A stretch of DNA of 63,691 nt, the filler included, from Stramenopiles sp. TOSAG23-6 (Eukaryota), in NCBI GenBank assembly GCA_900128565.1. It is 12 parts of 12 records of this genome, joined end to end, with 100 filler letters (N's around TTAATTAATTAA, not from the genome) between each part and the next. Parts side by side here need not be neighbours in the genome. Positions count along the whole stretch, not along the records: positions 29,598 to 36,877 come from LT636582.1; 11 more parts are not named here. The stretch is one strand, 5' to 3'. Under the pieces are notes generated by a model, which was not told the origin of the DNA, ran no database searches, and worked only from the letters and a program-made list of their open reading frames with translations. Shown here in pieces: positions 103-63,431 of this stretch (its first letter is position 1; every line of letters begins with the position of its first letter). The translations under genes were made by a program, and so were the position numbers.

Positions 103-437
103 ATATGATTATTAAATAAATTTTGTAATTTTTCATTGGCAAAATTAATACATAATTGTTCAAGAGAATTAATTTGCATAATTTCAAAACCAAAAATATC
201 TAAAATACCTATAAAATTTGATGAATTATTATTATTACTTGGGGTAGGGTTAGGGTTATCAGTAGTAGGGTTAGGGTTATCAGTAGTAGGGTTAGGGTTT
301 ATATTATTTTGAGTGTGGTTTTGATGATTTGATGAATTTTCATATATTAAATGTTTTTCGTGTAGTATTTTGTTACACACTTCTTCCACAAGCCATGTAA
401 AAATACGTTGATAAATATTCTTGACTAATGACATCGT
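103..437 (-). CDS. Myosin motor domain, internal exon
   Basis: [10 protein letters not shown] and [11 protein letters not shown]...[16 protein letters not shown] are myosin head motifs. The exon is bounded by a family acceptor (ATTATAT| at 438) and donor (AT|GTACGTTTT at 102). Confidence 0.85.
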
Positions 438-1878: not shown

Positions 1879-4077
1879 ATGATTCGAACGTTCATATCCA
1901 AGACAGTTCCCCGAGCATGGACACAGCACTCCAAGATGGTTAAGAAAATCATTGTTGGAAATGCATTACCATGTATTGGCACAAGTTCATTAAATTGTAC
2001 ACATTTTCAGTGTCGATGTTCGAGCAATGGTAAAGGGAGAAACAACGGAAGGAACGGCGGCCCCAGCGTAACTAATGGAGGGAATAATCTTGGACGTAGA
2101 ACTAAACGCATTATTGATACAAAAAAGAGCCAAGGTGGCGGAGCCGGTGGTGGTGGAGGTCCACCTGGAGATGATATGCTTTGTCCTAACTGTGAAAACC
2201 GACTACAAATCGCTGTAATGCCGACGTTGAAGCAACAAGAAGATGATCCAACTGTCGGACCTGTGTATACTTGTTTGAAGTGTGGTAGTTACTGGCGTTT
2301 AGCTGGACCTCGGACTCCAGTAGGTTCAAGCAATGTTCAGATTGGAACAAACTTTCGAACGAATACTACACAAGAAGATTATGAAAAACAGATGAAAGAT
2401 GAGAAGTATGCGGAATATCAGGTTTTAGAAGGTTCAAAATTGAATCCAAAAGAGCTTTTTGAAGGTCTAGATGAGCACGTCGTAGCTCAAGAAAAGGTGA
2501 AAAAAGTATTAAGTGTAAGTATGCATAATCATTTTAAACGATTGAATAATCACATCGAAAAGGAAAACAAAAAAGCAAGTGAAACTTTCCTAAGCAGAGA
2601 AATTTCGTCAGGTTCACCGTCTGATCTCAATATGGACAATATTGGGATGCCGACAAATAGCCTTAATATTCCATTTCCTCTCGGTCCTAGAGGTTCACAT
2701 ATGGGTTTGTCTACGGTATGGGATACATCAGAACCAAAATCTCATACAAATCCAGCCATGAATTCGAAAAGTGAATCCCCAGAGGAAGGCGCTTCTAAAA
2801 GTGCTTCTGCATTAACACTCGTCGATGAGCCTGAAGATGATTTAAAAAAAGATGCAATGAAAGGAGACTTCAAAAAAGGTTCAACACCTGGAGAAACTCG
2901 CAAAGATAAACTAAATGCTTTAAAGCAGTTAAATGGTCACTCGTATGATGAGGATGATGTCGTATTAGATAAGACAAATGTGATGCTGGTTGGTCCTACA
3001 GGCTCAGGGAAAACATTATTGGCCAAGACTCTGGCTAGTCTTGTTGATGTACCACTTGCTATAGTTGATGCCACATCACTAACTCAATCAGGATACGTTG
3101 GTGAAGATGTAGAGTCAATTTTGTTTCGTTTATATAAGGCATCTGGCTACGATTTAGAAGCAACACAAAGAGGTGTAGTATACATTGATGAAGTTGATAA
3201 GCTCGCTCGAAAAGCAGAGAGTGTAAATATTACTCGAGATGTTAGTGGCGAAGGTGTACAACAAGCTTTATTGAAGATGCTCGAAGGATCTGTGGTTCAT
3301 GTACCTGAAAAGGGAGGTAGAAAAAACCCAAGAGGAGAGTTTATATCGATCGATACTACACATATACTATTTATATGTGGTGGTGCATTTGCTGGACTTG
3401 AAGAAGTAGTTGCCAGACGAGTAGCAAAATCATCAATTGGATTTGGTGCCCGAGTGCGAGGTAAAGAAAAAGCTGAAACTAAATTGATGGAAGTTTCTGA
3501 GCCGGCAGATTTAATGAGGTTTGGAATGATTCCTGAATTTGTTTCGCGTTTTCCTGTCATTGTGAGTACAAGTGAATTGACTGAAGATCAACTTATTGAT
3601 GTACTTACCAAACCAAAGAGTGCGTTAATTAAACAGTATAGGAAATTATATTCCATGAGTAATACTGAATTCCATACTACTGATGCAGCGATGAGAGAGA
3701 TTGCGAAAAGTGCTCGTGTGCGTGTACGTTTTCATTTCAATTTCTAATTTTTTTTTTTTTTTTTCGTATGAAATTTTGTACCTAAATAAAAAAAATTGAA
3801 ATATTTTTTCACGATACATGGTACTGGTGCGAGAGGTCTTCGTGCAATTATGGAACGTATGCTAACTGAATCAATGTATTATTGCCCAGATGATGATGAA
3901 GATATTCGTGGTGTTTTAGTCACAGAAGATGTCGTTAAGGGTTATATTCCACCAATAATGTTACGGGGAGATGAGACTGTTGAAAGTTATTTTGAAAAAG
4001 TATCTGAAGGTTCTCTTGGTCCAAAAAATACACTAGAAAGTGTTGATGTTCCTGACGTTCTTGGAGCTGCTGCATAA
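1879..4077 (+). CDS. CLPX: Mitochondrial ClpX AAA+ chaperone; exons 1879-3723, 3820-4077
   Basis: Presequence-like N-terminus, CxxC/CxxC zinc motif, [22 protein letters not shown] and [14 protein letters not shown]. Splicing restores [16 protein letters not shown]. Confidence 0.95.
3724..3819 (+). other. Non-canonical GT-AT intron (family member)
   Basis: GTACGTTTT...GTACCTAAA...GATACAT. It has an in-frame stop and no AG anywhere inside, and removal restores the TGARGLR sensor-2 region. Confidence 0.9.
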
Positions 4078-4407: not shown

Positions 4408-6500
4408 ATGGCAAAGAAAACTGCTGCAGAAAAAGCTGCTGCAAAGGCTGCACTTCGTGCAAAGCGTGCGGCACGCGAGGCTGCCAAACGTCGCGCTCGT
4501 GGTGAACTGACTGAAGAAGACGAAGATGAAGTCAAAGTAGAAGAAGATAAACAAGAGGACAAGGTCTCTTCTTCGTCTTTGACTGCATTTGACGTATTGA
4601 ACCATGCTAGTATTACTGGTAAACTCACATCTCGCGAAGATTCCCGTGATGTTCAGATTGAAAATTTTAATATCACTTTATATGGTCGAGAGTTAGTTGC
4701 TGACACTACTTTAGCCTTGAATTATGGTCGTCGTATTGGTCTTATTGGTGGTAATGGTTCCGGAAAGTCTACCTTATTAATGGCAATTGCTACTCGCCAA
4801 ATTCCTATTCCTGATCATATTGATATATGGCATCTTCACGAAGAAGCTAAACCTTCAGACCGCACCGCTATGGAATGTACTATAGATACAGTCAAACTTG
4901 AAGCCAGTCGTATCGAAAAACAAATAGATGACGTCATGGCAGAGTATGGCGGCGACGCTGAAGAATTGACTGACCTTTATGAACGATTGGATGATTTAAG
5001 TCCCGAAACATTCGAAATGCGTGCTGGGGAACTTTTATTTGGTCTTGGATTTTCGCAAGAAATGATGAACAAAGCAACAAAAGATATGTCTGGTGGTTGG
5101 CGCATGCGTGTAGCACTAGCTCAGGCGCTGCTCGTTGAACCAAAGCTACTTTTATTGGATGAGCCAACAAACCATCTTGATCTTGGTGCATGTGTTTGGC
5201 TTGAAAATTATTTATCAACGTACAAAAAATGTCTTCTGGTTACATCCCATTCTCAAGATTTTTTGAACACGGTATGCACAAATATCATGTACGTTTTCAT
5301 CTTTAATTTCAATTTTTTTTCCCCCAGACACTTTCATACCTAACAAATTTAGAATTTCTTTATTTTTTTACAATACATGGAACTAACAGTCAGAGGTACT
5401 TTAGAGTATTGGTCTGGTAACTATGATACTTTTATCAAAACAAAAAGTGATAAGGAAATTAATCAACTGAAGAGACACAGAAAAGAACAAGATGACATTA
5501 AACGTCTTAAGCACTTCATTAATACTTGTGGTACGTACTCTAATTTAGTGAAGCAAGCTCAATCCAAACAAAAAATTATTGACAAAATGATTGAAGCAGG
5601 ATTAACTCCAAAACCAGATAAAGTAACCGAATACAATTTTAACTTTCCTCGTTGTGGTGCTTTAGCACCTCCTGTCATGTCTTTTAAAGAAGTCTCGTTT
5701 TCATACTCTGGAAAGAAAGAGGACTACCTGTACACGGATCTTGACTTTGGAGTTGATTTAGATTCTCGAGTTGCATTAGTTGGTCCAAATGGTGCTGGTA
5801 AATCGACGTTATTGAAACTCATGACTGGAGATTTAATTGCTACAGAAGGAGATGTCAGTCGTCATAGTCATTTACGAATTTCATACTATAATCAGCATTC
5901 TGAAGATCAGTTGGACTTAAATTTGAGTCCAATTCAGTTTATGCAAAAAACTTTTGCTGCAGGTGTTGTTTTACCAGGAAGAGAAAAGAAACAACTTACA
6001 CTTGAAGAATGGAGAAGTGTTTTGGGAATGTATGGCATCACAGGTTCACGCCAAAGTGATACCATGAGAACTATGTACGTCTTCATCAACAATTTCACTT
6101 TCATTTTTTTTTCGTTGAAAATTCTATATCTAACAAATTTCAAATTTGATACATTTTCACACAATACATGTCCGATGGTCTTCGCACTCGTGTTGTATTT
6201 TGTCTTTTATCTCTCGGAAATCCTCATATTTTACTCCTTGATGAGCCTACCAATCATTTAGATATGGAGTGCATCGACTCATTGGCAAGGGCTATTAATA
6301 ACTTTGAAGGTGGTCTCATTCTTGTTAGTCACGACTTTCGATTAATTACTCAAGTAGCTTCTGAGATTTGGGTATGTGATAAAGGAATCACAAAATGGAC
6401 CACTGGAATTCGTGCATATAAGAAGAAATTGAAGGCTGATGGTGAAAGTCATATTAAGAAGATGATGAGACGTCTCAAAAGTAGACAAGAAAAAGGATAA
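4408..6500 (+). CDS. ABCF2: ABC-F family ATPase (ABCF2/ARB1-like); exons 4408-5288, 5379-6074, 6170-6500
   Basis: Two nucleotide-binding domains ([27 protein letters not shown] and [23 protein letters not shown]) and no membrane domain. Confidence 0.9.
5289..5378 (+). other. GT-AT intron (family member)
   Basis: AT|GTACGTTTT...ATACCTAAC...AATACAT|G; joins VCTNIM-ELT...GNYD in frame. Confidence 0.85.
6075..6169 (+). other. GT-AT intron (family member)
   Basis: No AG inside. The next downstream AG would delete the ABC signature and most of Walker B; GT-AT removal gives [10 protein letters not shown]. Confidence 0.9.
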
Positions 6501-8587: not shown

Positions 8588-11500
8588 CTATTCCCCGTCA
8601 TCATACGGATTCACATCACGGGAATGATATCCACGTTGCTCTGCCAAACGCTTCATGTATTGTTGACTATACTCCTCTTCGGACATCCCAGACATTTCCG
8701 CAGCCTGTTGTATTTTTTCTCTGTAACCTGCAATTGTATCATCATCATAGCCTGCAAGTTTAAGGTACTCATATAAATCCTTCGCCTTATCAAGAGCAGA
8801 CATACGCTCTTCATACCGATTTGACTGTCCTCCAGGTGATGCCTTGCCATTCATTGAGTACTCAGAGTATCGCTCTTTATAGCGTTCAAAGTATGCCTTT
8901 TCATACTCTTTTGTTGTCATACCTGCTGCAACCGCCCCATCCTTGAGCTGATTACGGTACGTTTCGATAGTAGCTTCATCATATCCTGCTTGTTGTAAAT
9001 ATTCGTATATATCCTTACTATTCTTTAATGCTTTACCAAGTTTCTCATACGCTGCATTGTGGTCTGCCCTAGACGTCATACCACCACGTCGTTCTTCACC
9101 CTTACCAACACCATCTTTTCCTGTCCCAGCAGCAGGAGGTAAAACTTTGTATACACTCCATCTTCGATTATTCGTTTCACCTTCAGGAGTAGCTTCATCA
9201 CAAAAGTCATCAATACAACCACATCTACGTTTTGTTTCATCAAGACAAGGTCGCTCACATGATCCTCCTTCACGATCTAGTTTTGTTAGCAATTTATTAA
9301 ATGCAAACGAGTGACCATCACTATACGCACGAGCAATAGCAAAATATTTCTTATCGTTAGTAACTGCGTGGTGCTTAGCAAGCTTAAATCGTGCGCCTGT
9401 AGAGCCACCAGCATAGATTTTGTCTTCCGAAAATGAATTTTCAGATGTAAAGCATCCAATATACTTGGATCGATGACTTGTGAATCCACTGTTATTTGCC
9501 TTGGCAGCTGCCTTTTTTGATGCTTTACGGAAATCTCTGCGATTTTTCCTGACAATGCGAGAGGTTTGCACGCGATTCCATTCGTGTCCTTTTTTTACAC
9601 GATATATGCGGACCATCCAATTTTGTGATGTAAATGCTTCTTCAATATGTTCAAGTTGAATATGTTTATCACCAACTTCCATATTTCGCACAAGATCAAA
9701 TCCATTTGGTTTTGAATAATCCGTGATTAGTTCAGAAAAACGGTAATATGAAGTTTTGTATATTAAAGATCGAAGAAATTGTTTTGTCGCAGTATGATCA
9801 ATAGCAAATCTACCTTTGGAGTTGTAATATTTTTCCTCCGTGACATGTATTTTGGAAAAATATTTCAAAAAAAATCTAAAACAATTTGTTAGGTACAAAA
9901 TTTCGTATGAAAAAAAAAATCGATTTTTTTGTAAAAAAAAAAATAAAACATACATCATCATAAACACCTTGTGCGATACGAACCATCCAAAGGAACTTAT
10001 TAATGTCATCGGATTGATAACCTGTTTTACCACCAAATACAACTAGTACATAATCAACATCTAGACTATCAAGAATAGGCCAGGCTTTCTCCTCAGAAGA
10101 AGCAAGAGCTCGGGCAACAGTCGCAATATGAGTATTATTCCAGGTATTATGCATTATGAAAAATATTTCAAAATTTAAAATCGTTAGGTACAAAATTTTT
10201 ATAAAAAAAAAAAAAAAATCGAAATTGAAATGAAAACGTACATTATCTACTAATGTAGTACGATTTGACATTGAGGCCATTTGGTATCCATAATCCCACC
10301 CTGTATTATGAATAAATATGTTTTATGTATGAAATTTGTTAGTTTTTTGTTTTTTGTACAAAACTTGGAGTAAGTATAAAACACAAATTGAGATGAATGA
10401 TGAAAAAAATATTTCAAATTTTTTCAAGAACTTATTAGGTACAAATTTTCGTACGAAAACAAAAAATCTTAAAAAAAATGAAAACGTACATGCAAGAACT
10501 TTGGCATCGGGATGAGTATTATGTCGTAACCAATAGTATGCCTCACGGTAATCATCCATAATGACACGTGTTCCATCTGCACGACGACTTGCTAAAACAA
10601 TAGAAGGACTAGAATATGCTTCTGAAGCAACATAAGTAACATGCATTGAATACATGCAAAGCATCCCTGTCATACCCATGATCACCATAACTGCCAAACT
10701 AAATGGAATTTCTGATTTAGGTGTCTTTACAGAATTTCTCAAATTTTTATCATCTGACAATAAATGAACTTTGTATTTTATATGAGCCATAAATCGTCGT
10801 AGTATAGCACTAACCGAAATTGAAGCTAGGATACATGCAATAGGTGCAAGGGTAAGCATAAGTCTCACCATGACACCCGCGAAATACCACGAAATTGTTC
10901 CATATAAAATAATAAAAATTTTCGAATCTGTAGGGTTTTCAAATAAAAAATACACACCTGCAGGTGAAAAAGGGACTAAAATATGTAAATCAAAAAAGAA
11001 CGAGGTCCAAGTAGTGGGCTGATGTTCACTAACGGATGCAATAATGGGTATATATTTTTTAGCATAGGTAGGATCTAATAAAGACAAGGCCCTGCCGGTA
11101 AACTGAACTTTTCCAGATAACAAAGCGATGCTAATAATCGTCACTGTAAGTGTCATAACACCAAAGAATGCAAGACGCATGAGAAATTTTGCTTGTTTAG
11201 CAGTCACCTTATTTCTAAACCAGATCATAAGAGCAAATGCATTAATCATGATAAATACACCATGTGAAGATGCACATTCTGCTTGCAATAGTACATTAAA
11301 TCCAACAAATGGAACTTGCATCGCCATTAAATTACCCAATATATAATACGTTGTGTATGCAACATACAAGCGTCGTGAATAACGCCCTGCAACAGTTAGG
11401 ATAAGTACATATAATGGTATAATATTGATAATGAAAATATATCCACCCCATGCAGAAACCATATAAAAATATGCCACGGCCGTCACCGCAGCGTAGGCCA

Positions 11501-12182
11501 TTGAACCAGTATTGACAGATTTTACCCATAGATAAAACACAAATATTAGTGCAAATATGGCAACCCCTTCATTATCATACGACCCTCCAACAGATCGTGA
11601 AATGTAGGATGGAACGACACCAACAAAGGCAGCTGCTAAAAGTGCTGTAGAAGATCGACGGACAACTTCCTTTGTCAGTAGAAATGTGACAACACAAGTA
11701 AGACTGGCAAAAAATGGGGCCAAAAATACGCACTGATTACGAACACTAATTGATATATTTATCGTGTTGAGAAGCCAGTAGAAAAATGACGCAGTTGCCA
11801 TAAGACCTGGATATACAGTACCTCCAACAATGCGTCCGAGAGGATACCAAGAACGGTCATCGAACCAATTTAGAAAATTTACAGGACCTTCGTTAGCAAG
11901 GTATTTCGTAGTGCGATAATTAAAGTAAGGATCATATTCATGGATAACACTCTCCCATCTCACCACTGCAAATAACCTTATCATGAAAGACATGAGGCAA
12001 ATAAGTAACAAGATAGTGTATTGGAAAACAGGCACAGCCGCATTGGAAACATAATCTTGTTCTATCGTCTCTATCAATGGCGGAAATGCTGTCGGGTCAG
12101 ATTTCAAGTAAGTTACTGTATCCAAAATAATCCCCTTAGCACCTGAGGTTTTCTCCCCAGATTTTGTTGAATCTTCCTTCAT
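8588..12182 (-). CDS. STT3: Oligosaccharyltransferase catalytic subunit with a long C-terminal extension; exons 12182-10490, 10300-10242, 10148-9954, 9844-8588
   Basis: [17 protein letters not shown], the spliced WWDYGYQ and [14 protein letters not shown] motifs, and [12 protein letters not shown]. Confidence 0.97.
10149..10241 (-). other. GT-AT intron (family member)
   Basis: AAT|GTACG...TGCAT|AAT restores the invariant DN-NTWNN; no AG inside the intron. Confidence 0.92.
10301..10489 (-). other. GT-AG compound family intron
   Basis: T|GTACG...AATACAG|GG restores WWDYG. The AG sits at the same position as AT in sister introns. Confidence 0.92.
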
Positions 12183-12425
12183 TCTACAGGAAAGGGTTGA
12201 TTAACTTGAGCAGATATAACCCGCGAAGTTGTCACTTTAGTTCTCGAATGACTGTGTGGTGGCCATTTGGCCAATAAAAAGAAAAAAAAAGGAATATTCG
12301 AAAGTATGGAACAAATCTGCTAGTTCAAAGTGTGTCAAAAAAAAAATCGAGTGAGTGCACCAAAACAGGTAAATCATCACGGAAGTCATCCTCTACCTAT
12401 ATATATATAAAGGAGATAAGGCAAT

Positions 12426-22347: not shown

Positions 22348-24919
22348 TTTTGAAACTATATCTTTGTCGTGATGGACTAGTTCGAATTTGTACAGATGAA
22401 TACAGACATCCTGGTAACTGTGAAGCTAATTTGGGTAATATATTTATGCATTTATCAAATTATTCTTTAAACAAAACATCTACTGCATACGTTCATTCAA
22501 ATGATTCGACGGGAGGGAATGTACGTTTTTTTTTTTCAATTTTTCATCTAAAATTTTTTTTCGTACGAAATATTGTACCTAACAATTTTTTTTTAGATTT
22601 TTTTAAAATTATTTTTCCAAAATACATGGGAATAAAAGAGCATTGTCTGCTGTATTAGAAAGTTTTGCACAGGAAGGAATTACTGATGTGTTTCAATTAT
22701 GGCATCGCCTTTGTTCACTTGTTAGTCTCACTACCCAAGCAATGAGACCAGCCTTAATTGATGCAATAAGAAAATCTACAGATGTTGTGTATGTATGTTT
22801 TTTTTTTTTTTTTTTACCGAAAAAAAAAATCGAATTTTTTTTTTTATAAAAATTTTGTACCTAAACAAAAATTATTTTTTTTGAAATATTTTTCCAAAAT
22901 ACATAATTCGTACATCAACTCTCCAGAACGATCTCGAGCAAATATTTCTTTTGCTCCTTTCGGAACTCCTTATGGAAAAACAACCAATGACAAAGTGTTG
23001 AATGAAACAATAAAACGACATTTGAAAAATTTGCAATCTGGTGGCAGAAGCTTCCATATATTTGGCTTCGATGTAATGCTTGATGAACATTTTGATCCTT
23101 GGCTTCTTGAGGTCAATGCTAATCCTAGCTTTAATATTTCAGCCCCACATTTCAAACAAAGATTAGAAGAGGTCGAGTTGAATAAACCATTGACAAAATT
23201 AGAAGAGGTCGAGTTAAATAAACCATTGACAAAATTAGAAATGTATGAAAACAAAAAGAATTTCCCCATTGAAGCAGTCAAGAACAAAATGTATGAGGAC
23301 GATGGCACTAAATCCGATGAAAGCATTATTGGAACTATCAGTGACGAAGATATACAATCCAATAGTTCAGTACAATTCAAAGATTTGTCGTCTTGTACAA
23401 ANAGAAAAACAAAAAGAAGTACTATTAGCGAAATTGATAAAATGGTTAAAACAAAGGCTTTATTGGGTGCATTTGAAATAGCCGAATTAGAACTATCAAA
23501 AACAATTCCAGGAAATAAAAAAGACAAAAAGGGTGGAATAATAGAGGGTACAAATAAAAGTATTTATTATATCCCAGTTGGAACCAGGCATGTACGTTTC
23601 ACATGATGAATTTATTAATTTTTTTTTTTTGGTTTTCGTACGAAATTTCGTACCTAACGATTTTTTTTCATGATTTCGTTTTTTTTCACCACAAATAGTG
23701 AACAACATCCTGGACTTCTTGCAATCCATAGACTTCAAAAACTTTGCTCAGAATTATTATCAACAAGGAGTGGATTTACTTCATTCAAATTTAGGAACTT
23801 TGTTAAACATTGCGACCTGTACGTTTTCGACATTGAGCTTTACATTTGTTTTTTACAGAAAATAATTTGTATTCAACATATTTCAAATGTTACATTTTTT
23901 TTCACAATAAATTTTGACCGACAAATTAACAATAGTTGATGTTGATCATTTGTATGCTTCTATGCGGTATGCATTTACAAATAGAAATAGGTGTGATGTA
24001 GATCGTGTTTCCAATGATGTCCTTTCAGGGATGTGTCCGTTTTCCTACCATTTCAATTTTTTATGTATTTTTTTTCATACCAAAATTTGTACCTAACAAA
24101 AAAATTACAAAAAAAAAATATTTTTTTGCAGTACATGGGATACAAATGCTTCGCTTACCGAGGTCGAAGCATATTCCAGTCTATCTCTACATCCTATCCA
24201 ACTAACTGAATTAGTGCAATCCGTGGCTGCAAAAGCAAGACCTCATTTATCGCCTCTAGCGGCATTGACATGTATGTTGTTTTTTTTAATTTCGAATATT
24301 TTTTTTTCGTACGAAATTTTGTACCTAACAAATTTAAGTTTTTTTTTATGAAATATTTTTCCGAAATACATTATTATTAGATTGTCATGAAAAATCCAAA
24401 CATGAAACCTATTTTCATACTACTCCTACTACCTCGAATAAAAAAATAAATCAAAAAACAAATAATAAATTTGCAAAATCACATAGTCAGTCAAAACAAA
24501 AACGCAAATTAATTCAAAAGTCTACTTCGAGTTGTTCAGAGTCAAAAATGGTAATACTTAAACAACCTGGTCGTAAAAAATGTGTTCAAAACTTTCAGAC
24601 AGAATTACCTATTCAAAACTCTCAGACAGAATTACAAAACTCTCAGACAGAATTACATATTCAAAACTCTCAGACAGAATTACATATTCAAAATTCGCAA
24701 CATTCCGAAAGCATGAAAGTACCTACTATTGATTTGAGTAGTTCTAGTAGCTCTTTGGCAGTGTCTATTACTGATGACGACTCTGATCGAGACATAAGTT
24801 TTATTGGTGTTGCTACAGGGTTTACAGATTTAGAATCAGAAGTGTTGAAAACAATGAAAGATTTGGAAAAAGGACTTGTAAAAATTGAGAAAATCGAAAA
24901 TAATTTTTTAACTAAATAA
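22348..24919 (+). CDS. Tubulin-tyrosine-ligase-like (polyglutamylase) gene, 5'-truncated; introns 22521-22627, 22793-22904, 23592-23696, 23819-23912, 24035-24136, 24272-24371
   Basis: DGLVRICT..Y, MHLSNYSLNK and FHIFGFDVMLD...PWLLEVNANPSF. The frame stays open across all six AT-ended introns; the last two also have in-frame AG alternatives. Confidence 0.85.
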
Positions 24920-33511: not shown

Positions 33512-34665
33512 TCAAGAATATTTCAAATGAATTCGTTTAATGCGCCCTGCGATCGACCTCCAATTTGAGATTTCATTTGGTTTTATTTCTTTGTATTTTT
33601 TATACAATTCTTGTAAAGATTGCATTCATTGTGAAAAAATACGAAAGCATACAAAAACAAAAGGGTTAGATACGAAATATTATATTATATATTAGGCTAG
33701 TATATAGTCTATATAGTACAAAAAAAAATTTAAAAATTTGTAAAAAATTCATGATTAGGGTTAGGGTTAACAAACATGTCATTTCGCAAAGGAATGCATT
33801 TTTCAAAAGTTGAATTTTTTATAAATGGTGCCATTTTTGTAATAATATTTTGACGCGTCGTATCCACAACTGATTTCAAATCAGGTTTATTTGAAGATTA
33901 TGTACTATGAAAAAATATGCTCAAAAAAAAAAATCTGAAAATATTTGTTAGGTACAAAATTTCGTACGAAAAAAAAAATTGAAATTAATGATGAAAAAAA
34001 TGTACGTTGTCGTGGACTTCGTTTTCTAGGTGACGTCATTTCCCTTGGAGACATTTTTGATGGAGAATTCACATTTTTTTGTGATAAAAGTTGTTTAATT
34101 CTCTTTCGTATAGGTACACATTTTTCAAAATCAAGATTTGCGATATGACTTTTCATTTGGGCTTCCAATTTTGAAATTTCCTTTTCAATTTCGGATGAAT
34201 TTTGACTTGAGATTCGAACTCTCGGTTTTGGTGGTGGTGGACGTCCACGAGCACTGCTTGGTTTAGGTGGAGGTGGCTTACGTTTGGAAATACCTCGTTT
34301 ACGTGCCGGTGGTACAGGTGGAGGTGCAGGAAGTTGTCGTGTCTGTCGAGTCATTTTTTGTTGACTTCGATTTTGTTCACTTTCAAGCTGAGGAGTTGCA
34401 TCAACAAAAAAACGACCTTTCACACGAAAAGAAGGCAATTCTTGTACAATTTCTTGCAATCGACCTTGGATAGCTAATTCGCATTGAAGACTTGGGTATT
34501 CTATAATATGTTCAATATGAAATATATGCAAGTACTATGTAAATATATATTCAGTAAAAAAAAAGAGTTTAGACGAAAATCAATAGTCATGTATTACGTA
34601 CGTCTAGTATGTCTATTGGTAAAAGGAGGTGGTGGAGGGTATGTTGCAAAAGTAAATCGACTCAT
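33512..34665 (-). CDS. Pro-rich protein with two UVR-like coiled motifs; introns 34501-34601 (GT-AG, no family core), 33900-34005 and 33624-33775 (GT-AT)
   Basis: Repeated FEKC(V/I)P(I/L)R motif; the four exons give a continuous ORF from ATG 34665 to TGA 33512. Confidence 0.65.
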
Positions 34666-35444: not shown

Positions 35445-35597
35445 ACAAAGAAATTTTAGAGACCGATAAGTATCATATAAAGACATTTTATGATCCCATC
35501 CCGTTTTTATTTTTCAAATATAAAAAAATGATTAAAATATTTGTACTTCCATCATCAACATAATAAATCTTTGACTAGTGCTAAATAGTTAATGTGA

Positions 35598-36764
35598 TTA
35601 TACTGAATCTCCTCCTTCGCTTGGCCCTCTAATTACTGGAACTTCTCCAAGATCTAAATGATCATTTGATTTCTGAGAATCCCGTGTTAATTTTGAGATT
35701 TGTTTTTGTCCCATAATTGTTGGAGATTCATCAAATGTAATGTAGGAAATATTAAAACATTTTTTTGTTAGATACACTCTTTGTAGTCCATGTAATTATT
35801 AGTATTTTTAAACAAAAAACAACGAGACATTCAAATTTTAGATTCATAGTGCACTTGGAAACATACATTCGTCATCACTTGGTGGAAATTCGCCTTCCAT
35901 ATAATCGTCATTATTAAAATCCATTGCAGAGACAGGATTTCGTTCACCAATACCAGAATATGCAACATATTCGTTCCTGTTGAAAAAGTACTTTACCTTA
36001 TCTGAAACTGTTTGAATTCCATGTATTTTAGAAAATATTTCATTTTTATTTTGGTTAGTACGAAATTTTCATTGTAAAAAAACGAAAAAAGTTTTTTTTT
36101 TGAGAAACGTACATTATATACTTGATCCTTCCCATGATGAAAGACTTTTGCAATAGGATTTGTATGACTTGCATATTTCCCATTTGACTCATCACATTCT
36201 CGTATAAAGGATGGATTTGAAGAAAATTTCGATTTTCTTCCACCAAAACCTCCAAAACTTCCAAAACCAGAAGTAGTATATGGTGAATTTCCTTTTTTAT
36301 GAAAGCATAATCCATATATAATTCCACATAAAAGAAGAATTACAATCCATCCACCATGACTTAGAGAATTATGCCAATTTGGACAATCTTTTATAATACG
36401 CCGTTGATCAAGTCCATCTACACAACTGTTACCAGCTACAAGGCGATATCCTTTGGAAATGGCATATGTCCCAACGCAATTTTTTGGTGGTCCAGTGTAT
36501 TGTGAAAAAATATTTCAAAAATTTCAAATGTTTTAGTTAGGTACAACATTTCGTACGAAAAAAAAATTTAGACAAAAAATTGAAAAAAAATAAAACATAT
36601 TTGGACACTTGTTTCTCTTCTTTTTTTTTCTTATCCATATCTTTTGCACTAGAAAAGAATGATGATTTTGATTCTTCAAGTGTGCATTTCCCACCGTTAA
36701 TATCACGAGTATACCCGGTATCACACTCATAATCTAAATCAACACATTTACAATTGGTAACTTC
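35598..36764 (-). CDS. VPS10/sortilin C-terminal part; introns 36495-36600 (AT-AC), 36021-36112 and 35735-35866 (GT-AT)
   Basis: Spliced translation gives NCKCVDLDYECDTGYTR...GYRLVAGNSCVDG (10CC module), a TM helix and an acidic cytosolic tail. Not visible in the ORF track. Confidence 0.82.
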
Positions 36765-44201: not shown

Positions 44202-44411
44202 GTATGTTTTATTTTTTTTTTTTAACAAAAAAATCGAATTTATTTTTCGTACGAANNNNNNNNNNNNNNNNNNNNNNNNNNNNNNNNNNNNNNNNNNNNT
44301 TAATTAATTAANNNNNNNNNNNNNNNNNNNNNNNNNNNNNNNNNNNNNNNNNNNNATTTTGTACCTAACAAATTTTAGTTTTTTTTTTTGAAATATTTTT
44401 CCAAAATACAC

Positions 44412-45931: not shown

Positions 45932-47648
45932 TCAACGCTTAGTGGTACCGCGATTTGATAATTCCACAAATGCGTTGTTTTTGGTTTTCTCCAATTTTTC
46001 TGCATTTCTAGCAGTATTAAAAGAAAATAATCCAATTTTTGCACTTTCATCACGCTCCAAAGTAGCATATGTCCCTGATGTTTTTTTCTGCTCATCATGT
46101 GTATTCGAATCATTACCAACCACTGATATTCTTGCGTTGTATGGAATATTATCCAATTCTTGTTGTGTGCATGGAAAATCAAGCTCTACATGAGTACCCT
46201 CATTGGATTCAAGAGATAAATAAGTAAACTGCCAAGGAGTTGAACTATTGAGATTTTTGTTTTCTTCATGACGAACAGCATGTACAGTTACTTTGGCTCG
46301 TTTTCCACCTAAACAATCTTTAGCTTCTTTAGGGTTAGGGTTAGGGCCCAGACATTCAAATCTAAAATTAGCAAACGTGTTTTCAATTTTTCCGCCTAAA
46401 AATCGACCACCACTAATTTCTCCTCCTAAAGCATTTTGCGCAGTCTTATTGCGTTGAATAGTTCTAAGTGCCAAATCCCTTATGTCGATGGACTTACGTA
46501 CATGTATTGTCAAAAATATTTCATATATTGAAAATTCGTTAGATATATTACAAAATGTTCCATGAAAAAAAAAATTAAATTCATTATGAAAATATATACA
46601 TCTCAAAAAAAATTCTTAGGTACAAATTTTCGTACGGAAAAAAAAAGGTAAAAAAAATATGATAAAAACGTACTCTATATCGTCGATGACCAAAAATACC
46701 AAGACTAAAAAGACCCAAAGTAATTGAAATTATCAATAAATTATCACTTTGGGGTAAATATTCATAAACTGTACTAAAATAATTCTTTTTCTTTGACGAA
46801 AATTCGTCAAGTCCGGAATTTTGTATACAAATCGACTGCAAAGAGATTTTCAAACCTTTACTAGTTTCAGGTACCAGTTGAACTATTCTAGGGTTAGGGT
46901 TACTAGACTGAAATGTATCTGAGGTTTGCGATAATTGAGTATTTTCCCCAATAGTTTTATCGCTTTTTTTGCTTGAATTTTTTAATGCAATTGGTGTCAC
47001 GTTTAATTTCTGTATCAGACAATGAGTAGGGTGTACAACTAACGTAGCCTTTTTTTTGTACGTACCAAATTCCGTACCTGATGTCAACAATTCACGTTTT
47101 TCAGACATATTGTTTTGAGTTTTTTGAGTTTTTTGAGTTTTTTGAGTTTCTAGACAATTTTCATGGACACTACTATCAATATTTGATTTATCTGTAGCAT
47201 TTATTTCCGAGTCTTTACTACCTTCATTTTTACTTTCATCTAAAAGAAGCGAAAGTAACTCTACTTTAGCTGTACCACGATTTCCTGTTATGAAAAACGT
47301 TGCATCAAGAAACGCATCCTCCAATCCAACTTTACAAATATTTTGTGTCCCTGAAACGCGACTCGATATACACATATCTGAACCAACTAATTCTTTGACT
47401 TCATCAGAAGACGATAACACATGAAATGCGGGGGAAAAGGCTTGATTCTTTTGTAAAGACTTGTCCAACAAGTACTTCGATGTCTGATATGTCAAAAAGC
47501 TCATGGTCGTGACACCTCCGATTAGGCCAAGCAGTCCGTAGTTGACACGTCGTGGTACGCTTGACTCTGTTGTCGAGACGTTTGTAATCTGGCGTATGTA
47601 GTATGGTATATGTATCATAGAACTACGACTTCTATACAATACATGCAT
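45932..47648 (-). CDS. Probable mitochondrial inner-membrane protein with two TM + Tim21/Coa1-like modules; intron 46502-46673
   Basis: Each TM is followed by helix-(L/V)G...F.I.G..G.AKV-like sequence. Domain identity is by eye only. Confidence 0.55.
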
Positions 47649-48008: not shown

Positions 48009-51000
48009 ATGTCTGATCCAGAGGGATATCAAATACCTCCAGCTGTCTCTGTCAGCAATGACGTTAGTCAATCAACTCCTCGTACATCTCTATCTGTCGT
48101 CACAAAAACACATACAAAAAAAGAATCAGGTATACCAAATGATTTATATGAAGGTGGGACGCAAATCGAGTCTGTAATATCTCCTATATCAAATGCTTCA
48201 TCGGAATGCGCTTCTTTACGTCAACAAGTAGTTCAATTATCTAAATGTGCGGAAGAAAACTCTATAGAGAATTTCTTACCTGATGAAACTCCGTTTGCTG
48301 AGTCTCTCCCACCTCGGCCAATAGCGCGCGAAAATCAGCATCGTATAGAATTATTGAAGCGAGCTCGCCGAATGGAACACGATAATGAACGACGCGAGCG
48401 TGAAAAGATAAAAGCAAATAACAAGCTACGTCAAAAAACTTTGGAGAAAATAAACGAAAGTCAAGAAAAAAAATTAGGGTTAGAGTTTCCACAAAGTCTT
48501 CGAGATAAAGAGCAATTTGATGAATTAATGAATTTAAAAACGGATGAAATTTTATCTCGATCAAATAAGCAAACAAAATTTAGATTAGATGAAAATGAAA
48601 TTTTAGTTGGAAAAAATAGTTATATATCTACTACTACGGGTAAAACATCCGAAAAATGTATAAACCCTAACCCTAGTAACCCGAGTGAAGGTCAAATCAC
48701 AAACAATGACACTCAGAACATTCAAAATTCGTTACGTTCGAAAACCATAGGAGGATTAGCAACAGATGTTCATTCAAATGTTCATTCAAATGTTCATTCA
48801 AATGTTCATTCAAAATCAAATAATAGACCTAACCTTGGGAAGGATTACTCCTTAGATAACAATACACAGTATTCAATGCGTGAACGAAAAAACACGAAAT
48901 CTATACAAAACAAAATCGAACATAGCACAACAAAAAGTAACGATAATTGTACTGTCCAGAAAACTTCAAAAACTCCAAAAGTGAATAATGTAGAAATCAT
49001 TCGGGCACAAAAAGCAGCATTGGAGCTAGCTAAGTATAGTATGGCGCAAAATCAATTAAAAATTAGAAAATTGGCGATGGAAAGAAAACAAAAAAGTCGT
49101 ATGTTTTTTTTTCAATTTCGAATTTATTTTTCATACAAAATTTTGTACCTAACCATATTTTTTTTTTTCGAAAATTCTTTACCTAACAATTTTTCTTTTT
49201 TGATTTTTTTCAAAAATATATGTGATCTGGCAATAAGACTTAGGGAACAAACATTACAGCCAAGACTACCAAAAAGAAAACGAAAATCTAAAGAAATTAA
49301 TAAAAATATAAAATCAACATTATCAAAAAGTAGTTCAAAAAATAGAAATTTCGCAGCTTCTTTTCCAAAATCTAAAAATACAAAAACATCAAAATCAAAG
49401 CCAACAGTGTTAAAAATAAAAAATAGTACAAAACATCATGAAATAAATCATCCAAAAAATACAAAACATCAAAACAATCAAAATCATAACCCTAATCCAA
49501 AAAATACAAAACATCAAGACAATCTTATTTTGAAACAATCAAATTCTGCGACTGAAAAAAAAGTGAAAAAGAAATCGACCAAATCGACCAAACCAAAAAA
49601 GAAGATTGCGTATAAAGAATTAAAAAGGAGACGACAAAATGTCAATTCTTTAGGTAAGAAATTTCCTACGAATTTAATTTCGAATGATAAAAATTTGGAT
49701 GATTCTCATACGAGTAAAAAAATAGAGCAAGCCATAAATAGAACATGTACGTTTGCACCATGAATTTCAATTTTTTTTTTTTTTGATACGGAATTTTGTA
49801 CCTAAATGTTTTTTTTTTTTGAGTTTTTGAGTTTTTTATTCAATACGTTTTCACTATAAAATGTCAAATTTTTTTTTTAGAAAATTTTGAACCCCAAACA
49901 CATTTTATTTTTACTAAAAAAGAAAAAGAAAAAAAATATATTTTTTCACAATACATGGTTGGATGGTTTAGAAACTTCTATAATGAACAAAATATTACCT
50001 TTACAAATTCAAAAAGAGAATAACAAAAATAACAAAAATAATACATCTAAAAAAGAAAAAAATACTAATTTTCACACTCGTAAAAATACAATTGAAAAAA
50101 GTTTAGAAATATCATCTGGAAAGCCAAAGAATACAAAATCAGAGTCAGAAAAAATAGAAAAACGTAAAAAATTAGTTGCATATATGGCGCGAAAAAAGAA
50201 AGAAATGAAATTAAAAATTAAAGCAGAAAAACAAAAGTTTGAAAATGAGAAAAAGTCAAAAGAAGAGAGACTTCTTGGAGTACGGGAAAATGCTTTAAAA
50301 GCATATCAAACTATGAAAGTGAAAAAGATGTATGTTTTATTTTTTTTTTCAATTTTGAATTATTTTTTTTCAAAAAAAATTTGTACCTAACAAAATTTTT
50401 TAGTTTTTTTTTTGAAATATTTTTCCAAAATACATGCCACTGCTAAAGAAAAGAGAAACGAATCGCAAATCCCGCAAAGCATTGAGTATTACTAAAAATG
50501 GATCGAAAATGAGATACAATTCGCATTCAAGTAATTTTGGTACAACAAAAAATGTTCAAAAACAAAAAATGTTCAAAAATGAAAAAATAAAAAGTACGAT
50601 AAATTTTCAAATGGACAAGAATTTAAATTCGACCGATGCATCGAATATAGTAAAGCATACTAAAACTTCTAGTACATCAATACATCAAAATCAGTCGTCA
50701 AGTAGTATTCAAATGCTCAAAATCAAAGAAAAAAAGAGTAATAAAAAAAAGAATAATATAGTCAAAAAAAGTTCCACTTGTATTAAAACATCTAAAATAC
50801 CTAAAAAAACTCATAAAAATAAATCTACTTTTGAAAATGGAACCCAACAAATTCGAAATTTATCAGGTGTTGTGAAAAAAACTCAAATATCTCAAGATTC
50901 AAGTTCAAATTTGCAAATGAAAACTAAACTAACTTTGTTAAATACTAAGAATACTAGGAATAATAAAAAAGTAAATTCTACAGTAGAGGAAAGTAGCAGT

Positions 51001-51022: not shown

Positions 51023-51120
51023 GTATGTTTTTTTTTTTTTTTTAATCGATTTTTTTTTCGTACGAAATTTTGTACCTAACAAATTTAATTTTTTTTTTGA
51101 AATATTTTTCCAAAATACAT

Positions 51121-59091: not shown

Positions 59092-59823
59092 CAAATGATA
59101 ATGACGTCATTGTTTTTGGTGTTTTTGGTGTTTTTGGTGTTTTTAATTGATCATTTACAAATGATAATGATATTCTACCTAACATTTGTTGTGCTATATT
59201 AACAGCTATTTTTGATTCTGGTGAATCATTCAAAATCTTTCTTCCTTTACCTGGCTTTGGTTTACTCAATAAATGTTTCTGCTGCATCCTATATTGTGAT
59301 TTTTTTTTTTTTTTCAAAGTAAAAAAATATCGTTAGGTATAAAATTTTGTACGAAAAAAAAATTATGTAAAAAAAACAATTTTTTTAAAACGTACATGAG
59401 TAATAAAGAACTGGCTATACTTTTTGTTATTTGAAGTTGTTGTGCAAGTTTCGCAACAGTGATAAAAACACTCGGATTTCGTGTTTTCGGATGTGAATGT
59501 AAAATTTCTACAACTGCACGAGAAAACATAAAGTATAAAAAAATATTTCAAAATGTTTTTTTTGATTTTTTTTGTTAGGTACAAAATTTCGTACGAAAAA
59601 AAAAATTAAATTTCACAATAAAAACGTACAATATTGTTGTATGATCACACTTGGGAGTAGCTTTACTATTACTATTACTGTGTAGCTGAATAGTAGTAGG
59701 GTTAGGGTTTCTAACAGACTTTTTCGTTTTTAATGATTTTAATTTCAGTTTTTTTGAAACTTTTTTTTTTGGTGATAAAACAGATCGAGCATTAGGGTTA
59801 GGTAAAATACGTTTTATATTTGG
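59092..59823 (-). CDS. Fragment of a hypothetical gene; introns 59528-59629 (GT-AT) and 59289-59395 (GT-AG)
   Basis: Three ORF pieces join in frame at family positions. Confidence 0.55.
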
Positions 59824-63062: not shown

Positions 63063-63431
63063 ATACATCTTTTTTTTTTTTAATAGAAAATTTTGTACCT
63101 AACAAAAAATTTTCAAAAAAAAAAAATATTTCTTCACAATACAAAAGGAAATTAAGAAAAGAATTGATGCATGTACTACATCTGTAATGGTTGATTCTCA
63201 GTATATGGATTGGAAGAGTGCTTTGAAAGTCCCTCAGAGGGGAAGTTAATGTTTTTCATTTTTTTTTAATAAAATTCAAAAATTTATTTTTTTGTAAAAT
63301 TCAAAAATTTATTTTTTTGTAAATTTTTTTCATTTTTTTTTCAATTCAAATTCAAAAATTCATACATTTATTTTTTTTTGTATTACAAATTTTGTATTGT
63401 ATGTAGAATTTTTAAGCAAAATCTTACAATT

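Follow-up and report, generated by a model that had tools for sequence, protein, structure and literature searches.

The sortilin-like gene and its introns

The analysed stretch of DNA, here called the window (63,691 bases; Stramenopiles sp. TOSAG23-6, assembly GCA_900128565.1), carries on its minus strand a sortilin-like gene with an intron of 106 nucleotides (nt) at 36495-36600, the target of this study. Transcript contigs revealed that the target and its neighbouring introns are removed from RNA and that none of them ends in AG. The target is a real intron of an AT-rich, uncultured marine stramenopile and belongs, as a diverged copy, to an introner-like family (87-189 nt) whose members interrupt many unrelated genes. 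The window is a chain of 12 contigs in falling length order, eight of about 7.3 kilobases (kb) and four of about 1.07 kb, with a G+C content of about 23-42%. Spacers between the contigs are 100 nt long and have the form N44-TTAATTAATTAA-N44. The window is not one locus, and adjoining pieces are not necessarily neighbours in the genome.

The exon upstream of the target (36602-36764, minus strand) matches positions 88-128 of the Pfam family Sortilin_C (E 7.2e-07, 30.1 bits, cut-off 27). The downstream exon (36113-36494, minus strand; base 36495 is included if the RNA is read directly) encodes the cysteine-rich end, the membrane span and the tail of the sortilin-like protein. The next intron, at 36021-36112 (-), reads GT..AT, with TA..TG, TG..CA and AT..AC as slide-equivalent ends. 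The third intron, at 35735-35866 (-), is not a close family copy and has the signals GTATGT ... TATCTAAC ... TTACAT.

In the target, the exon end ...GTGTCCAA is followed on the minus strand by the 5′ motif ATATGTTTT (36592-36600; GTAYGTTTT in the family). The branch-like motif TACCTAAC is located at 36536-36543, and the 3′ motif AATACAC (36495-36501; AATACAT in the family) precedes the exon sequence TGGACC. The first base of the interval is thereby A (36600) and the last is C (36495). The family core is intact, with one consensus mismatch, and 8 of the 9 bases at the 5′ end agree with the consensus. A first-pass annotation, made from the sequence, had described this donor, this acceptor and the intact core, and all three are as it described them.

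Removal of introns from RNA

RNA data were Logan contigs from three metatranscriptome runs of polyadenylated (polyA) RNA, X6, X7 and X8, which came from two studies. A metagenome run, X3, was the DNA control. Sampled words of the contig at 29598-36877 were present in two small 'organism A' DNA runs, in seawater metagenomes and in polyA metatranscriptomes. Record 17 of X7 (1009 nt) spans 35578-36764 and contains three joints: 35734>35867, 36019>36112 and 36495>36602. The first two were detected in X6, X7 and X8, the last in X6 and X7 only. All three joints had a depth of 0 in the DNA run, and contig 8 of X3 was continuous through 36032-36525 with the introns retained. Removal therefore takes place at the RNA level.

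The spliced sequence is a single open frame through the three introns to a stop codon, including the Sortilin_C match, the membrane span and the tail. A fourth RNA-covered intron, at 33900-34005 (-), is joined in record 20 of X8. All four RNA-covered introns were removed, and none is AG-ended in any register that the joints permit.

An intron family with T as the last base

Both strands of the window carry many copies of a 90-125-nt element with the consensus GTAYGTTTT, a T-rich stretch, TTTCGTACGAAATTTTGTACCTAAC, a variable A/T stretch and TTTGAAATATTTTTYCAMAATACAT. The donor-plus-core pattern had 14 matches in the window and 0 in 100 shuffles, a count well outside what chance would give. The core was conserved in an alignment of 26 copies, and several contigs start or stop inside a copy. 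The same three signals, the 5′ motif, the branch-like motif and the 3′ motif, are present in introns that are not close copies (35735-35866, 36021-36112, 6075-6169 and 46502-46673).

Positions around the 5′ end are named x1, x2 and x3, with x3 being the G of GTAYGT, and the positions after ...ATAC at the 3′ end are y1, y2 and y3. The family register is a cut before x3 and after y2. Ends were counted in 31 complete introns, frames and flanks in 30. The 31 introns were picked by motif, the four RNA-supported ones were not. A survey of gaps between open reading frames for other intron types was too noisy, and with motif-based picking an absence of ordinary GT-AG introns with pyrimidine tracts cannot be claimed. 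Four lengths were set with ambiguity: the intron at 23592 by frame, those at 59629 and 59395 ambiguously, and that at 51023 against a frame preferring one more base.

The ends were GT..AT in 23 introns, GT..TT in three, GT..GT in two, GT..AG in two and AT..AC in one. The last base was T in 28 of the 31 complete introns; two end in AG and one in AC. The 5′ end is of the GTAYGT type in 30 of 31, and the remaining one, the target, has AUAUGU; it is the sole intron with an A at the start and the sole one with a C at the end. A motif CTAA[CAT]/TACTAAC, resembling a branch site, lies 32-47 nt before the 3′ end in 30 of 31. The first-pass annotation had treated the family as G..G introns, which these ends do not bear out. 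Since the last base of the family is T, an exchange of termini in the target would be from G..T to A..C and not from G..G to A..C. Its observation of a T at exon position -1 (31 of 38 introns) agrees with our own table (25 of 30).

Removal in the family register gave the best or a tied open frame in 27 of 30 introns. As exceptions, the intron at 23592 needs one more base and ends in ...TAGT, that at 51023 prefers one more base, and that at 59395 is ambiguous. The boundaries carry short direct repeats, with x1=y1 in 19, x2=y2 in 23 and x3=y3 in 16 of the 30 introns. Flanks were ATG..ATG in about half of the introns. The terminal ...AT is retained where the flanks differ; the repeat is therefore not simply a duplication. 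AG does not act as the signal: unused AGs are located between the branch motif and the end in 7 of 31 introns.

Several features of individual copies were recorded. Many have a canonical-looking TTTTAG or TTTTCAG 10-20 nt past the branch motif that is not used as 3′ splice site, for example 9845-9953 (-), 22521-22627 (+), 50330-50435 (+) and 33900-34005 (-). The intron at 51023-51120 (+) is a typical family copy, yet the flanking frames fit only if one extra base is removed, which may be due to a different cut or to an assembly error in a homopolymer run. Within the core, TTTCGTACGAAA is a perfect palindrome of 12 nt immediately 5′ of TTTTGTACCTAAC (e.g., 9888-9907, 33947-33966 and 51061-51080). 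It might form a hairpin or serve the mobile element as a site for protein binding. Longer introns at 46502-46673 (-), 49099-49221 (+) and 10301-10489 (-) look like two tandem family modules or have a duplicated branch motif, which suggests the insertion of one copy into another.

The family was also seen outside the window. In the DNA metagenome X3, the summed contig depth was about 46,500 at 33854-34043 and about 1,700 at 36514-36703, both over family cores, in comparison to 3-12 over exons. A total of 3,242 X3 contigs were placed, mostly over these two core regions. Copies of the family or of its relatives must be highly abundant in this sample. The core pattern occurred at four loci of metagenome contigs, of which only L002 has a family intron, ending GT..AT. 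It lies at L002:2440-2650 with ATG on both sides (environmental contig, 3,221 nt, 35% G+C). The same contig may contain a GT..CAG intron near 409-560. A search of viral contigs gave 0 matches.

Register of the cuts

Joints slide because typical copies carry ATG on both sides. The joints 35734>35867 and 36019>36112 fit three to four registers: GT..AT, TG..CA, AT..AC and, for one of them, TA..TG. Two introns with unlike flanks fix the register. In the family intron at 33900-34005 (-), position 33899 is joined to 34006, and GT..AT is the sole fitting register. With either upstream register, a TAA would fall in frame directly ahead of an exon in which the FEKC[VI]P[IL]R motif of the upstream exon recurs. 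Three AGs past the branch motif are skipped in this intron, one of them in a TTTTCAG context. The second is a GT..AG intron in the STT3 gene at 10301-10489 (-), which ends in ...ATACAG directly before the STT3 motif WWDYG. This motif was present in 110 of 120 STT3 homologues, and the sequence A-W-W-D-Y-G arises only by cutting before the G, which fixes the 5′ cut. Together, the two introns establish the rule: an intron starts with GT, and y2 is its last base. At 3724, cutting two bases further upstream would turn the Arg before TGARGLR of a ClpX-like ATPase into His.

The cut of the target intron

The exon upstream of the target ends in ...GTG TCC AA (x1 = 36602, x2 = 36601), and the intron has A as x3 at 36600. 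The 3′ end is ...CACAATAC-A-C, with y1 at 36496 and y2, the C, at 36495; the next exon starts with T GGA CCA. The joint 36495>36602 in record 12 of X6 and record 17 of X7 skips 106 nt of the minus strand, 36496-36601 or, equally, 36497-36602 or 36498-36603. It slides by 0 to +2, and the coding-strand ends are AA..CA, AA..AC or CA..TA. The messenger RNA (mRNA) reads ...GTG TCC ACT GGA CCA..., that is V-S-T-G (...GTGTCCA/CTGGACC), and the junction falls on a CA..CA repeat. Read from the RNA, the 5′ and the 3′ cut thus both fall 1-2 nt upstream of where the family register would place them.

Part of the first-pass reading of this junction stands. The frame is restored, as it had proposed with VSN-GPPKNC, although any 106-nt removal does so, and the N is a T in the RNA. 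As a check on complementary DNA, it had named an alternative GT...CT junction (TAT/GGA, a 103-nt skip). This was not seen; AT/..AC/, with cuts at the slashes, was not read directly either.

On balance, and at little better than an even call, we read both cuts of the target as displaced upstream by 1-2 nt relative to the family register (AA..CA or AA..AC) and not as AT/..AC/. The target has an A for the first G and a C for the last T of the family and is still removed as a 106-nt in-frame unit. With the DNA as in the window, the mRNA keeps the C of the intron end and loses one A of the exon (TCC-ACT-GGA), which places both cuts one or two bases upstream. The RNA-bearing population would then share the window bases at 36600-36602.

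Several points weigh against this shift. Given the family rule, an equal displacement of both cuts by 1-2 nt is mechanistically odd. Among the 31 complete introns and the partial copies, the only A-start is combined with one of only two C-ending 3′ motifs, and in the family register this looks like compensation. The RNA population differs from the window by about 1.3%, and with a single A>C at 36601 the observed mRNA would follow from a true AT..AC cut. The DNA contigs examined for the RNA-bearing population do not include position 36601. The rule itself has a narrow base on the RNA side: the unique GT..AT junction at 33900-34005 comes from one contig with a depth of 2 and 5 mismatches in 150 nt. 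The evidence consists of junctions and sequence.

A true AT..AC cut in the family register is accordingly the first alternative, which we regard as possible but doubtful. The target would be a compensated double mutant of a G..U first-last pair, and the Thr codon would stem from an A>C polymorphism at 36601. The register is fixed at GT in the two discriminating introns, and the 5′ end of the target has 8 of 9 consensus bases in that register. The single A-start coincides with the single C-end, for which the chance is 1/31 = 0.03, with n=1. RNA and metagenome DNA share one haplotype that is about 1.3% off the window exon bases (11 differences in 857 nt of record 17 of X7); of six listed differences, four are silent and two change an amino acid, so that amino-acid changes occur nearby. 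In the Leontis-Westhof tables, the cis Watson-Crick wobble pairs G.U and A.C are isosteric, which counts for this cut. The rule that pairs the first and last nucleotides, with G-G and A-C as partners, reportedly goes back to yeast genetics. PMC13326754 gives it for spliceosomal introns and accepts A-C as the partner swap for G-G.

The AT..AC cut fits the observed mRNA only with that A>C change in the RNA population. It requires one specific base to be changed to one specific letter, for which the observed divergence gives an a priori value of about 0.2-0.6%, whereas the direct reading needs no change. It is also a single case. The second ...ATACAC acceptor reported by the first-pass annotation does end at 44411, on the 3′ part of a family intron at 44356-44411 (+), but the contig begins inside the intron at 44356, so that the donor is missing. 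When metagenome contigs were scanned for an AT donor combined with the family core pattern, there were 0 matches. In a protein database, the downstream exon as query for transcripts of other strains over the target junction had no match at near or longer lengths.

Two further candidates were examined. A donor at the end of the preceding contig was considered for the 44411 acceptor and rejected; in our reading, the joined sequence lacks a plausible continuation of a Clf1-like protein. The annotation's possible AT-AA intron at about 63063-63143 appears as a degenerate family copy, ATACATC...AATACA (63063-63143, plus strand). The removal of 81 nt keeps the frame there, but the predicted ends are AT..CA or TA..AA and not AT..AA.

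The observation behind the AT-AC proposal is thus real but was mis-framed; it is partly confirmed, and the covariation of first and last base is a single case. As it stands, the RNA evidence speaks more against an AT..AC member than for one, without settling the matter. The lineage-wide class of T-ending, AG-independent introns is the more important result.

Machinery of intron removal

For the family as a whole, the main spliceosome of the organism is most likely the machinery. It would cut before the G of GTAYGTTTT and after the final T of the terminal ...AATACAT and ignore the AGs in between; the CTAAC-type branch motif sits 32-47 nt ahead of this T, and a few copies end in AG. A spliceosomal mechanism is indicated by the GTAYGT 5′ end, by the CTAAC-type motif in 30 of 31 introns, including those that are not family copies, and by precise removal from polyA RNA. 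Of the marks of a U2-type intron, the AG at the 3′ end is mostly missing; it was found in 2 of 31 introns and at 0 of the 4 RNA-supported joints. A U-ending site 32-47 nt beyond the branch motif might be selected through the conserved AAUACAU motif, through the partial complementarity of this motif with the 5′ end, or through a changed 3′-site factor.

The first-pass annotation had also argued for spliceosomal removal. A genuine in-frame intron removed at the RNA level, spliceosome-like signals and the lack of a self-splicing structure support this, while its argument from a G..G to A..C exchange does not hold. A further proposal goes beyond the assignment to the main spliceosome. This spliceosome may have swapped the near-universal 3′ AG for a U-ending site (GU...AAUACAU), ignoring AGs past the branch point and tolerating a few AG ends. 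The target would then be a compensated double mutant, A-first and C-last, with a G.U-type first-last wobble exchangeable for A.C. We hold this combined proposal tentatively and would not expect it to stand in all parts.

Removal by a non-spliceosomal route guided by repeats or structure is an unlikely alternative to the main spliceosome. The introns of euglenids and hemistasiid diplonemids and the introners of Amoebophrya are the precedents (PMC12621601, PMC7789003 and PMC6221363). The cuts would follow the end repeats, typically ATG..ATG and CA..CA in the target, whose junction indeed falls on this repeat. The boundary repeats counted above (x1=y1 19, x2=y2 23 and x3=y3 16 of 30), the joints sliding over 2-3 bases and the non-AG ends fit such a route, as does the 72% complementarity of the 5′ and 3′ nine-mers in the consensus. 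However, the borders are uniform, with GT in 30 of 31 introns and a textbook U1/U6-type GTAYGT. Even introns outside the set of family copies (35735-35866 and 36021-36112) retain the CTAAC branch motif, and the cut stays at the GT where the flanks are unlike (33900-34005 and 10301-10489). Conserved structure is also missing. RNAalifold found 0 conserved pairs in the 26 copies. A hand-drawn helix of 9 base pairs joining the intron ends was 72% paired in the consensus and had no covariation (495 of 500 shuffles do as well). Single folds of six introns had z values from -4.4 to +2.0, only one of them below -2.

A divergent minor, U12-like spliceosome, which the first-pass annotation had offered as an alternative, is very improbable. 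It would account for the tolerant 3′ ends and the mixture of GT and AT starts. Among U12-type introns, the end pairs GT-AT, AT-AA and AT-AG are typical variants, and the 5′ and branch motifs of the family are long and rigid. In our reading of the alignment, many 3′ ends are preceded, at about 20 nt, by a TTTGA/TTTAAT-like motif. The signals themselves disagree: the U12 5′ motif [AG]TATCCTT is not found, with the TCC core at 0 of 31 5′ ends and the U12 CC at +5/+6 in 0 of 31. The branch-like motif CTAAC/TAYCTAAC lies 32-47 nt from the 3′ end, whereas TCCTTAAC of U12-type introns lies at about 10-20 nt. GTATGT with TACTAAC is the classic major-type consensus of intron-poor eukaryotes and counts against this alternative. 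All four RNA-supported and all 31 delimited introns are in one class, which is therefore the main intron type of the organism and not a minority.

That no RNA-level feature exists, with DNA excised like a ciliate internal eliminated sequence or joined by a reverse-transcription artefact at direct repeats, is scarcely credible: short end repeats and one slide register with TG..CA speak for it, but the repeats are merely 2-3 nt long, an independent DNA metagenome contig (36032-36525) retains the introns, the joined forms have depth 0 in the DNA run, the open frames require removal in 27 of 30 introns and the conserved WWDYG is rebuilt.

Comparison with known intron systems

In the tunicate Fritillaria borealis, whose introns mostly depart from the GT/AG rule and originate from transposons, a U2-type main spliceosome removes them; intron ends include AG-AC and AG-AT (PMC13326754; PMC11282704). 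A duplication of U2AF, modification of small nuclear RNAs and a changed 3′-site factor have been proposed (PMC13326754). Non-AG 3′ termini are shared with the introns described here, and so, probably, is the use of the main spliceosome. The Fritillaria introns have a deviant 5′ end and diverse ends, whereas this stramenopile protist has a 5′ GT in 30 of 31 introns and one dominant non-AG 3′ end. Like AT-AC introns, the target starts with A and ends with C in the family register, where its relatives start with G. The differences are that the relatives end in U and not in G, that the direct RNA junction is elsewhere and that the target is one case.

Introners of Micromonas, Aureococcus, fungi and dinoflagellates resemble the family by many near-identical short introns in unrelated genes (PMC11282704; PMC12130899). 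Contigs that break inside copies, 3-nt direct repeats over the boundaries and partly complementary ends are further likenesses. Classical introners are GT-AG, whereas the family here is T-ending and introner-like by its sequence copies. U12-type introns, including the expanded set of Physarum, also have GT-AT and AT-AC pairs and rigid motifs (bioRxiv 10.1101/2020.10.12.336362). In the window, the TATCC core is missing, the branch motif lies far from the 3′ end, and the class forms the majority of introns.

Nonconventional introns with non-AG ends occur in euglenids and hemistasiid diplonemids (PMC12621601; PMC6221363), and Amoebophrya introners have direct repeats of 3-5 nt and inverted repeats of 8-20 nt (PMC7789003). 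Non-GT-AG ends, short junction repeats, some end complementarity and a host among marine protists are common to these and to the family. Those introns have variable borders, a strong end-pairing structure and no U1-type 5′ site. The family has uniform borders, GTAYGT, a branch motif and no supported structure. In none of these known systems does one T-ending 3′ site dominate while the GT and the branch motif are both retained.

No description of unusual introns was found in the searched literature on MAST-3 and other MAST groups (open-access main texts). In the genome papers PMC5778133, PMC12614181 and PMC8163842, introns and splicing come up in methods sentences only or not at all.

Nearly all spliceosomal introns end in AG. 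The exceptions, among them U12-type introns and those of Fritillaria, euglenozoans and Amoebophrya, inform views on how far a spliceosome can drift. Introns with a GT, a branch motif and a terminal T (four of four RNA-supported, 28 of 31 delimited) would be a clean natural system for the choice of a 3′ splice site free of AG. A confirmed AT..AC member, if true, would be genetic evidence for a new type of first-last base interaction.

Source lineage and public gene models

The STT3 reading frame at 10323-12200 (-) matched stramenopile proteins at 55-65% identity (Nannochloropsis, oomycetes, brown algae and Blastocystis). A diplonemid origin was considered, as single-cell genomes of marine diplonemids reportedly carry non-canonical introns, and was rejected: STT3 groups the window with stramenopiles. 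The top match was the EukProt entry GSMAST32.ASY1.ANO1.928.1. In a tblastn search, this entry was letter-identical to the window across the STT3 exons, so the gene model comes from the same or a nearly identical genome. We take the label GSMAST32 to stand for the MAST-3 group of marine stramenopiles.

This public gene model (P0001, 8591-12200, minus strand) handles the GT..AG intron of the STT3 gene correctly. It translates into the start of the GT..AT intron at 10149-10241, takes an AG 9 nt beyond the true end of the intron at 9845-9953 and removes conserved STT3 coding stretches as false introns. Gene sets of this genome were probably built with a GT-AG-only rule. The errors support the view that the feature has gone unnoticed, and protein sets of the lineage from GT-AG-only tools are probably damaged.

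The window also encodes a gene for a Clf1/Syf-type splicing factor with HAT repeats. An Rfam scan of the 63.7-kb window gave 0 family matches, and a scan for transfer RNA genes found none. The telomere-like word ACCCTAACCC occurs about 11 times in the window, on both strands and partly within open reading frames. Its sites are 25084 (+), 33765 (-), 34848 (-), 46339-46345 (-), 46898 (-), 48666 (+), 53850 (+), 59706 (-) and 254-296 (-), the last being a 21-nt tandem repeat.

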